Notes: generated by a model from the letters alone, not told the origin. A DNA stretch of 8,291 nucleotides from a virus (IMGVR_UViG_2667527595_000001); one strand, 5' to 3'. Counted from the first letter of the stretch, positions 1,113 through 8,291 are shown. Numbers and translations: made by a program.

Positions 1113-2318
<1,206 letters not shown>

Positions 2319-2319
2319 G

Positions 2320-3066
<747 letters not shown>

Positions 3067-3095: not shown

Positions 3096-4313
<1,218 letters not shown>

Positions 4314-4366
4314 GTGCCGACCGGGATTATCAGGACGCGGCATCTCAGTTTACCTACCACAACGTC

Positions 4367-4399
4367 AGTGCGCATAATGTGACACGCGTTATGTTGAAA
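4367..4399 (+). other. dif-like XerC/XerD recombination site (putative attP arm 1) with an extended 11-bp central region
   Basis: AGTGCGCATAA (10/11 to the XerC arm of E. coli dif, GGTGCGCATAA) - tgtgacacgcg - TTATGTTGAAA (9/11 to the XerD arm, TTATGTTAAAT). The dif consensus is quoted from memory. Confidence 0.45.
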
Positions 4400-4436
4400 A
4401 GGCCGCTGCGATACTCTCCACCGCAGCGGCCTTTTT
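4397..4436. terminator. Rho-independent terminator hairpin after gIV, possibly bidirectional
   Basis: Perfect 10-bp GC-rich stem ggccgctgcg (4401-4410) / cgcagcggcc (4422-4431) with an 11-nt loop, followed by TTTTT (4432-4436) and preceded by AAAA (4397-4400). Confidence 0.75.
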
Positions 4437-4460
4437 ATACATAACGTCATTGTGCGCACT
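4434..4460 (-). other. Second dif-like site in inverted orientation (putative attP arm 2)
   Basis: Reverse complement of 4434-4460 reads AGTGCGCACAA-TGACG-TTATGTATAAA (XerC-like arm 9/11, XerD-like arm about 8/11). 4365-4379 is complementary to 4448-4462 at 14 of 15 positions (one T/G mismatch). Confidence 0.4.
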
Positions 4461-4465
4461 GAACC

Positions 4466-4684: not shown

Positions 4685-4885
4685 TCACATTGCCTTTTTT
4701 TTCTTAAGTTCTTCCTGACTTACCATATCTATTGCTGCGTCTTTTGCGTAGTGATCTATCATGTAAGACAGTACTTCGGTCCATTTTATGCTCCTTCCTA
4801 TCTTTTGACTTGCATCAATAGCTAATCTTTCTAGCTTTAGATACTTCTCGTTTGGCACGTTATAACTCTTTCTTTTTTCAGCCAT
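4685..4885 (-). CDS. Small basic protein (66 aa), putative transcriptional regulator/repressor (possibly ribbon-helix-helix-like), divergent from the replication module
   Basis: Minus-strand ATG (plus CAT 4883-4885) with AAGGGGG SD about 8 nt upstream (plus 4893-4899 reverse-complemented). Product MAEKRKSYNVPNEKYLKLERLAIDASQKIGRSIKWTEVLSYMIDHYAKD... has a basic N-terminus followed by helix-like segments. Function inferred from size, charge pattern and divergent position, analogous to RstR of CTX-phi. Confidence 0.5.
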   Translation of the reverse strand: MAEKRKSYNVPNEKYLKLERLAIDASQKIGRSIKWTEVLSYMIDHYAKDAAIDMVSQEELKKKKAM

Positions 4886-5018
4886 TATTTAGCCCCCTTT
4901 TTTGTATTTAGCCATCATGTACTCTAGAGCACTTGAGCAAATGTTGTTAATACATCTTGTGTTCATGATGTTTTTTGAGTATGTTCTTTTTTGTCTTTCA
5001 TCATGAGGACATGAGGTC
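4886..5018. promoter_or_regulatory. AT-rich divergent promoter/operator region between the minus-strand regulator and the + strand replication operon
   Basis: Direct repeats TATTTAGCC at 4886-4894 and 4905-4913 flank the regulator's RBS; imperfect 14-bp palindrome GTACTCTAGAGCAC at 4919-4932 (12/14); recurrent TCATGA/CATCATG motifs around 4915-4921, 4964-4971 and 4998-5005. Confidence 0.45.

Positions 5019-7260
<2,242 letters not shown>

Positions 7261-8030: not shown

Positions 8031-8291
<261 letters not shown>

Follow-up and report, generated by a model that had tools for sequence, protein, structure and literature searches.

The 8,291-base stretch of DNA analysed here at its full length (IMGVR_UViG_2667527595_000001, hereafter the window) is a nearly complete genome of an Escherichia coli filamentous phage (inovirus). 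Its positions 4365-4462, which begin 52 nt past the stop codon of the secretin gene (gene IV, gIV), very probably constitute a CTX-type attachment site, attP(+), that is, a folded single strand recombined with the chromosomal dif site by XerC and XerD, two recombinases of the host. The evidence consists of the anatomy of the site, the location of prophages at dif, the position and orientation of the crossover, the lack of an integrase among the open reading frames (ORFs) tested, a predicted fold and the conservation of the cassette among related sequences.

The cassette is made up of two dif-like sites (Table 1). Site 1 lies on the (+) strand, with a XerC-like and a XerD-like arm on either side of an 11-bp centre. 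Site 2 follows at a distance of 34 nt in inverted orientation, its reverse complement (4434-4460) reading AGTGCGCACAA TGACG TTATGTATAAA, with a centre of 5 bp; the centre of dif has 6. Homology to the dif centre is confined to TGT at the XerC side; the bases at the XerD side differ (ACG/CG versus ATA), and the site 2 centre is not homologous to that side of dif either. A first-pass annotation, made from the sequence alone, had described both sites with their arms, spacing and inverted second copy, and every coordinate and sequence that it gave for them proved correct.

Searches for single arms were discarded as evidence, their counts being within chance: the XerC arm with up to 2 mismatches gave 5 matches in the window against 2.5 expected, and the XerD arm with up to 3 mismatches gave 34 against 24. 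A further 10/11 match to the XerC arm (GATGCGCATAA, 6109-6119) lies inside the replication initiator gene, rep, without a XerD-like partner, and is consistent with chance. The composite pattern, consisting of a XerC-like arm, a gap of 5-12 nt and a XerD-like arm, behaves differently. It occurs exactly twice in the window, at 4367-4399 (+) and 4434-4460 (-), compared to a mean of 0.03 per sequence in 1000 dinucleotide shuffles, only 1 of which contained at least two such sites.

Prophage junctions at dif

Filamentous prophages that match the window are found in E. coli chromosomes. Strain 100416 of E. coli carries the phage as a head-to-tail (tandem) dimer at dif, immediately after hipBA and beside hipA. 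At its left junction (attL), host sequence ...ggtttatgtt GGTGCGCATAA is followed by phage TGTGACACGCG TTATGTTGAAAAGGCC..., the phage part beginning TGTGACACGCG TTATGTTGAAA; the internal junction is the sequence of the window, ...ATC AGTGCGCATAA TGTGACACGCG...; and the right junction (attR) runs from phage ...ATC AGTGCGCATAA into TGTATA TTATGTTAAAT and host sequence. In other words, the dif XerC arm is followed by the phage centre in attL, and in attR the phage XerC arm precedes the centre and XerD arm of dif, while the host flanks put together rebuild GGTGCGCATAATGTATATTATGTTAAAT, which is dif. The three junctions therefore place the crossover in an interval bounded by XerC-arm position 1 and the centre's fourth base. 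This interval contains the predicted XerC cleavage position, the phosphodiester 4377/4378. They support an exchange point and a prophage orientation as expected if XerC cuts the (+) strand at 4377/4378.

Among 5426 complete E. coli genomes, 3329 have an uninterrupted dif between the same flanks, and 439 (~8%) have an attL of this type, with the hipA-side flank, the dif XerC arm and the cassette. Integration at dif through host XerCD in a CTX-type arrangement had been proposed at first pass, with prophage copies at dif named as a check; such copies exist, and their junctions support the proposal. The accompanying statement that the phage encodes no integrase also holds for the ORFs tested: neither Pfam nor a comparison of 9 ORFs with PHROGs identified an integrase or recombinase family in any of them, the only families found being Zot, Secretin, a GPA-type Rep and families of unknown function.

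Site 2 or the minus strand was considered as the recombining site and rejected. The exact hybrid pattern expected of a junction through site 2 or the minus strand had 0 matches in IMG/VR, and a synthetic inverted attL matched E. coli only at ~80%, as a palindromic self-match.

The attR is a dif that differs at position 1 (A for G). After integration the functional chromosomal dif carries the phage A at this position (AGTGCGCATAA...; L002 1906-1933). The host-side arm of attL already starts with A in L011 (IMG/VR 2617270961), which suggests either the scar of an earlier integration or a different dif in that host.

Mixed tandem arrays at dif were found in L005 (104-240 and 8385) and L037 (9015-9147). 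Both have a window-like phage upstream and a CUS-1-like phage next to it, with a junction composed of the XerC arm of the first phage and the centre of the second, and the arm of L005's own phage (G) is found at the L005 attR. The attR left by one phage is therefore reused as a bacterial attachment site (attB) by the next, and the exchange point is confirmed.

The predicted fold of the (+) strand and competing explanations

Folded as DNA, the (+) strand of the site has a predicted free energy of -40.8 kcal/mol, compared to a shuffle mean of -14.6 (z = -10.0), and none of 200 shuffles was as stable. The predicted structure begins with a 15-bp basal stem, in which 4365-4379 pairs with 4448-4462 over 15 nt (93% complementary, with one T.G), passes a one-sided, unpaired 6-nt bulge (TGACAC, 4380-4385), and then continues through 25 pairs, comprising the XerD arm and the tip stem, to an 11-nt loop. 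Beyond the bulge the centre is closed by CG 4387-4388 pairing with CG 4445-4446, preceded by a G.T wobble between G4386 and T4447. Both the basal pairing with its single T.G and the single-strand hairpin with a bulged centre had been anticipated in the first-pass annotation and are borne out by the folding, which gives the same topology as in CTXphi.

The same annotation had placed the gIV terminator at the tip of the hairpin. A stem-loop is indeed present there, and its form and position fit; what the terminator scan did not do is call it, as its 11-nt loop exceeds the 8-nt limit of the scan. Because of the GC-rich 14-bp stem, the T-run and the position 52 nt past the gIV stop, this stem-loop is probably a bidirectional terminator for gIV on the (+) strand and for the minus-strand ORFs.

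How well is the fold kept in relatives? The IMG/VR collection was searched with a pattern that specified site 1 only and did not require site 2. Among the 43 inovirus-sized contigs found in this way, 42 carry the inverted site 2 at 33-59 nt, the exception being a rearranged contig. L009 and L016 have unrelated sequence between the two sites, yet form the same fold. In an alignment of 19 native (phage-phage) cassettes, with pairs counted on the structure of the window, both TGT and closing CG in the centre of site 1 are invariant, as is the site 2 spacer CGTCA, and the bulge between TGT and CG varies freely. Core positions of the conservation profile were fixed by the search patterns, and only the values for the flanks and for the unrequired site 2 count as evidence; flank identity falls to background right outside the hairpin base.

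Paired cells amount to 94.5% across the 19 cassettes, versus 30-51% when the partners are slid by 1-3 columns. Position 1 of the arm covaries with its partner (G-C in 13, A-U in 4, G-U in 2, unpaired in 0), as do two pairs outside the dif-like arm, which alternate between UA and CG at alignment columns 4/102 and 5/101 (window 4365-4366 / 4461-4462). The centre-closing pair next to the XerD arm is changed from G-C to A-T on both strands in L009 and L072. An A.C mismatch at arm position 1 (L005, L017, L037, L059) was considered as a failure of covariation and set aside; in L005 and L037 it marks the junction of a mixed array. Taken together, the conservation or covariation of site 2, of the centre-closing pairs and of the pairs outside the arm appears to favour a folded single strand over a duplex site.

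Several points weigh against a CTX-type, single-stranded attP. The minus strand folds well too, at -36.8 kcal/mol. Because 9 of the 19 cassettes, all CUS-1-type, have a G.A mismatch at position 4 of the folded XerC arm, perfect pairing of the arm seems not to be required or not to be selected. Covarying pairs are few (4/40), and the pairing statistics are inflated by the shared ancestry of the sequences and by the derivation of the tested structure from one of them. In the literature searched, single-strand integration of an enterobacterial phage is "proposed" (PMC4266046) and not demonstrated. Finally, the junction sequences alone would be identical if XerC acted on duplex site 1.

This last point is the strength of a VGJ-type route, in which site 1 alone (4367-4399), as a duplex in the replicative form, recombines with dif via XerC, and site 2 is a relic or one half of the terminator. 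Such a route predicts attL and attR with exactly the observed sequences, and VGJ-type sites need only the XerC-side homology, TGT (PMC4246890). We nevertheless think it unlikely. With 11 bp, or 10 in some relatives, the duplex centre would be longer than those of dif (6 bp) and attP-VGJ (7 bp), and the 12-bp attP1 of CTXphi is reported to be unsuitable for Xer integration as a duplex (PMC4246890); by the same account, either site of the window may be inert as a duplex on account of its centre length. A dispensable site 2 also sits badly with its retention in 42 of the 43 contigs, even where the sequence between the sites is unrelated, with the invariance of its spacer and the covariation between this spacer and the site 1 centre's end, and with the covariation of pairs outside the dif-like arms.

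Extrusion of the same folded site as a cruciform from the supercoiled double-stranded replicative form, in place of a free single strand, would lead to similar products, and both strands form strong hairpins (-40.8 and -36.8 kcal/mol). We hold this to be decidedly improbable, given that a single strand is the substrate shown for CTXphi (Val et al. 2005, as cited in PMC4246890), that junctions in IMG/VR and in E. coli genomes run only through the (+)-strand site and none through its minus-strand equivalent, and that the asymmetric 6-nt bulge and the mismatches would be expected to disfavour extrusion. The hairpin also occupies the position after gene IV where Ff phages have their packaging signal and terminator, and its tip is terminator-like, so that it might be no more than a terminator, a packaging signal or a minus-strand origin, with an incidental likeness to dif and with prophages arising by, for example, homologous recombination. 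It is scarcely credible that this is the whole explanation: insertion is always at dif, the crossover lies at the border of site 1 arm and centre in every junction examined, the homology shared with dif is just 13-14 bp, and a composite dif-like pair is expected only 0.03 times by chance. The junctions contradict structural roles as the sole explanation; as additional functions they could apply.

For the CTX-type attP(+), the following course of events is proposed. Within the (+) single strand, packaged or produced by rolling-circle replication, the two dif-like half-cassettes would pair by virtue of their inverted orientation, forming an 11-bp XerC-binding duplex (4367-4377/4450-4460) and an imperfect XerD-binding duplex (4389-4399/4434-4444), separated by a short paired centre with the 6-nt bulge on the top strand. 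Host XerC and XerD would bind this fold and synapse it with the chromosomal dif. XerC would then cut the (+) strand after 4377 and the top strand of dif after GGTGCGCATAA and swap them, the shared TGT stabilising the exchange. Because there is no homology on the XerD side, XerD would exchange no strands, and replication would turn the pseudo-Holliday junction into an integrated prophage. The single-stranded substrate, catalysis by XerC only, resolution of the junction by replication and irreversible integration are suggested by analogy with CTXphi. With its 11-bp centre, attL should be inert as a duplex, while attR would be a working dif open to further phages, giving tandem and mixed arrays; arrays of both kinds are seen, and the attL centre does measure 11 bp. 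From tandem copies, the GPA-type Rep would yield new (+) single strands able to fold into the attachment site.

Phage genome and neighbouring features

The window is a permuted, slightly incomplete genome, broken in the Gly/Ser repeat of gene III, and not a closed circle. Its 5' end lies inside a pIII-like gene (1-243 and 8031-8291), with 78-nt tandem repeats coding for Gly/Ser at 49-243. The window as a closed circle was rejected: the joined ends give no continuous gene III ORF and do not meet in frame, and strain 100416 has 676 nt extra at this place; the genome is therefore near-complete rather than circular. A related contig has more copies of the repeat, and the window ends are probably an assembly break within a length-variable linker. 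The + strand carries the genes and is T-rich throughout, with a negative AT skew in every segment, which is the expectation for the viral (packaged) strand of an inovirus.

The genes with recognisable products are listed in Table 1. The copy of the GPA-type Rep in RefSeq is annotated with a start at the ATG near 5260. The small minus-strand ORF between the attachment site and rep has no Pfam match; from its position alone, which is that of rstR in CTXphi, it is possibly a regulator. An inverted-repeat cluster based on CATCATG/CATGATG lies at 4913-5017, between this ORF and the first + strand ORF (5019), and looks like the operators of a divergent promoter region. The same part of the genome (4625-5254) is where the window and the 100416 prophage diverge, a behaviour expected of an immunity region.

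Table 1. Features of the window, with positions counted from its first base
Feature	Position	Strand	Basis or remark
Zot/pI-like protein	1116-2318	+	Pfam and PHROGs searches
Gene IV, secretin/pIV, last in the (+)-strand morphogenesis operon	3105-4313	+	Pfam Secretin PF00263, E = 9e-25
Basal stem extension TC	4365-4366	+	Pairs with GA 4461-4462; outside the dif-like arm
Site 1 XerC-like arm AGTGCGCATAA	4367-4377	+	10/11 to dif XerC arm GGTGCGCATAA
Site 1 centre TGTGACACGCG, 11 nt	4378-4388	+	TGT equals the XerC side of the dif centre TGTATA
Site 1 XerD-like arm TTATGTTGAAA	4389-4399	+	9/11 to dif XerD arm TTATGTTAAAT; imperfect pairing with 4434-4444
Tip stem-loop, perfect 14-bp GC-rich stem, 11-nt loop, T-runs on both strands	4397-4435		4397-4410 pairs with 4422-4435
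Site 2 XerD-arm partner, TTATGTATAAA on the minus strand	4434-4444	-	8/11 to dif
Site 2 centre, CGTCA (+) / TGACG (-), 5 nt	4445-4449	-	Bottom strand of the folded centre
Site 2 XerC-arm partner, AGTGCGCACAA on the minus strand	4450-4460	-	9/11 to dif; pairs with 4367-4377, one T.G wobble
GA, 3' partner of the stem extension 4365-4366	4461-4462	+	Fold, pairing and covariation in relatives
Small ORF, 66 aa, between attachment site and rep	4685-4885	-	phrog_2503, function unknown, E = 7e-27
Rolling-circle initiator, P2 GPA type, 700 aa	5158-7260	+	Pfam Phage_GPA PF05840, E = 9e-49; phrog_91 'nicking at origin of replication', E = 2e-128

Between gI/Zot and gIV is a GC-rich 339-bp tandem repeat (2332-3066; 2.2 copies, 96% matches) that contains no convincing ORF. 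Over its first ~60 nt, each unit matches small mobilisable plasmids of the ColE1 type at 94-96% (304 plasmid places), and in one of these plasmids the match is ~290 nt from rop. We take the matching stretch to be the one just downstream of the ColE1/pBR322 origin, which holds the PriA primosome assembly site; if this is correct, the repeat could be a priming signal for the minus strand that the phage has captured. Scanning the window against Rfam gave no match.

In the collection of deposited phages, megablast and blastn found no DNA relative of either the whole window or the attP region, and the best protein match of pIV is 44% identical, in metagenomic inoviruses.

Spread of the cassette and comparison with known systems

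The window aligns to IMG/VR contigs that are 80-99% identical along the CUS-1 backbone only at the attP region, and the same cassette is joined to unrelated replication modules, P2 GPA here versus gene II/X in CUS-1, YpfPhi and UPphi901. With one genome taken per species, the site was found in Lelliottia, Phytobacter, Yersinia, Erwinia, Enterobacter, Kluyvera, Rosenbergiella and Pseudomonas. Exchange of the cassette between phages with GPA-type and gene II-type Rep (Escherichia to Pseudomonas) is likely, as is its terminator role, and a packaging or priming role of the hairpin is pure conjecture. A portable, multifunctional cassette of ~100 nt that is swapped between unrelated inoviruses and combines a bidirectional terminator of gene IV, a single-stranded Xer site and a packaging or minus-strand priming hairpin is an idea that we put forward as rather unlikely.

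Remnants of the cassette occur elsewhere. One such remnant, derived from the CUS-1-type cassette, is present on large E. coli plasmids (L004 3001-3069, corresponding to NZ_CP049102.1, 15644-15712, and ~480 other plasmid places); it retains a portion of the XerD arm together with the terminator stem-loop and site 2, and lacks the XerC arm of site 1. It adjoins a gene of the STM4504/CBY_0614 family and an IS200 fragment, downstream of a macB/tolC-like operon, and resembles a fossilised left phage end. The cassette is also found in contigs filed under unlikely hosts, namely L068 (a metagenome-assembled genome of Candidatus Nanosynbacter) and L073 (Actinomadura monticuli contig44). L068 has the E. 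coli hipA-side flank TGGTTTATGTT, and the cassette sequence of L073 is that of IMG/VR contig L016; both are most likely contamination or mis-binning.

Reading positions 4365-4462 as a CTX-type site would indicate by which mechanism lysogeny arises in an E. coli inovirus that is uncharacterised and has no close relative in the deposited phage collection. The folded site would then be a conserved, exchangeable cassette, found at dif in ~8% of complete E. coli genomes and in several other genera of Enterobacterales. CTXphi of Vibrio is the only phage for which the single-strand model of integration has been demonstrated, and E. coli, with its XerCD and its genetics, offers a handy test system outside that genus. 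Each integration rewrites the XerC arm of the host dimer-resolution site and leaves the site open to further insertions, which bears on how islands build up in the terminus region. No new kind of system is revealed; the value lies in the spread and modularity of the cassette.

Ff phages (f1/M13) have a long imperfect (+)-strand hairpin right after gene IV, which is the packaging signal and also terminates gene IV transcription; it lacks dif-like arms, and Ff phages are not known to integrate. Their hairpin is comparable to the site of the window only in its position after gIV and in its hairpin form.

VGJphi-type phages share with the window the use of host XerCD at dif, with a XerC-first exchange that needs XerC-side homology and no catalysis by XerD (PMC4246890). 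VGJphi has a single attP with a ~7-bp centre, which works as a duplex, and its integration is reversible, whereas the window has an inverted pair of sites whose centres measure 11 and 5 bp, neither of canonical length. Sites of the TLC/GGI type have a centre identical to that of dif and a degenerate XerD arm, and recombine XerD-first; the centre in the window departs from dif after TGT, and its XerD arm matches at 9/11.

The UPphi901 group of Enterobacterales inoviruses resembles the window phage in forming tandem filamentous prophages at dif in E. coli. The repeat at its phage-phage junctions matches only the first ~15 bases of dif (PMC7307601), which by description corresponds to the XerC arm plus TGT, as in the window; neither "attP" nor "hairpin" occurs in the text of that paper. 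Unlike the window phage, the group is related to IKe/I2-2, with gene II/V like YpfPhi.

CTXphi (NC_015209), analysed with the same scripts, has attP1 AGTGCGTATTA TGTGGCGCGGCA TTATGTTGAGG on the + strand, with a 12-nt centre, and, 89 nt downstream and inverted, attP2 AATGCGTATTA TACGCCA TTATGTTACGG, with a 7-nt centre. Its attL is the dif1 arm plus the phage centre, and its attR the phage arm plus TGTATG TTATGTTAAAT. The folded + strand shows an arm duplex, a 5-nt bulge on the top strand, three closing pairs and an imperfect XerD arm, in the topology of the window. CTX-type sites are described as having an attP1 centre of 12 bp and an attP2 centre of 5-7 bp, neither usable as a duplex, with specificity provided by the bases beside the XerC arm, catalysis by XerC alone and resolution of the junction by replication (PMC4246890); the same source cites Val et al. 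2005 for the single strand of CTXphi as the substrate.

The likeness extends to the inverted arrangement of two dif-like sites on the (+) strand, of which the first has an over-long centre and the second a short one; to the TGT beside the XerC arm that matches dif, with no homology on the XerD side and an attR that is a rebuilt dif; to a 5-6-nt top-strand bulge and 3 closing pairs in the fold; and to the location of the site, which has the end of the (+) operon on one side and a small divergent gene, a regulator in CTXphi, on the other. The two differ in having no sequence homology beyond the dif-like arms, in centre lengths (12 and 7 versus 11 and 5 nt), in size (arms 89 nt apart with a forked tip and ~150 nt in CTXphi, 34 nt with a single terminator-like stem-loop and ~98 nt in the window) and in the host site, the dif1 of the CTXphi host reading AGTGCGCATTA TGTATG... 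and thus departing from E. coli dif. The CTXphi mechanism is experimentally proven, and the site of the window is known from its sequence and predicted fold.

The closest systems are CUS-1 (E. coli O18:K1:H7 / UTI89) and YpfPhi (Yersinia pestis), which are listed as CTX-type members (PMC4246890) and described as relatives of CTXphi in enterobacteria (PMC3442271); the paired inverted sites of YpfPhi have been proposed as a potential XerCD substrate (PMC4266046). Their cassette is homologous to that of the window, ~84% identical over ~92 nt, with an 11-nt site 1 centre starting with TGT, an identical XerD arm TTATGTTGAAA, the terminator stem GGCCGCTGCG and the CGTCA spacer. The CUS-1-like prophage at dif in UTI89 reads GGTGCGCATAA TGTACGACTCG TTATGTTGAAA, followed by the same terminator stem and CTTTAGCATAA CGTCA TTGTGCGAACC, and its attL and attR follow the same logic; Y. 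pestis NCTC5923 (L066) carries an identical CUS-1-type cassette, which is that of YpfPhi. Like the window phage, both lie at dif beside hipA, with the same composition of attL and attR and in tandem arrays (PMC4266046).

Within the cassette, the arm duplex of CUS-1 starts with G-C and has a G.A at position 4, whereas that of the window starts with A-T and has no mismatch except for the one T.G. The rest of CUS-1 is unrelated to the window at the DNA level, with a gene II/X-type Rep and a helix-turn-helix repressor in contrast to the P2 GPA-type Rep, and with two small ORFs between gIV and attR; the backbone of the CUS-1/YpfPhi lineage (gene II/X Rep, gene order, ~99% between CUS-1 and YpfPhi) is not shared by the window phage. 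A comparison with the attP regions of CTXphi, CUS-1 and YpfPhi, which had been suggested at first pass, thus gives the same layout and fold in the first and a cassette ~84% identical in the other two. The cassette of the window, a site of a known kind, is homologous to that of CUS-1/YpfPhi and analogous to the CTXphi attP(+), and is joined to a different replication module.

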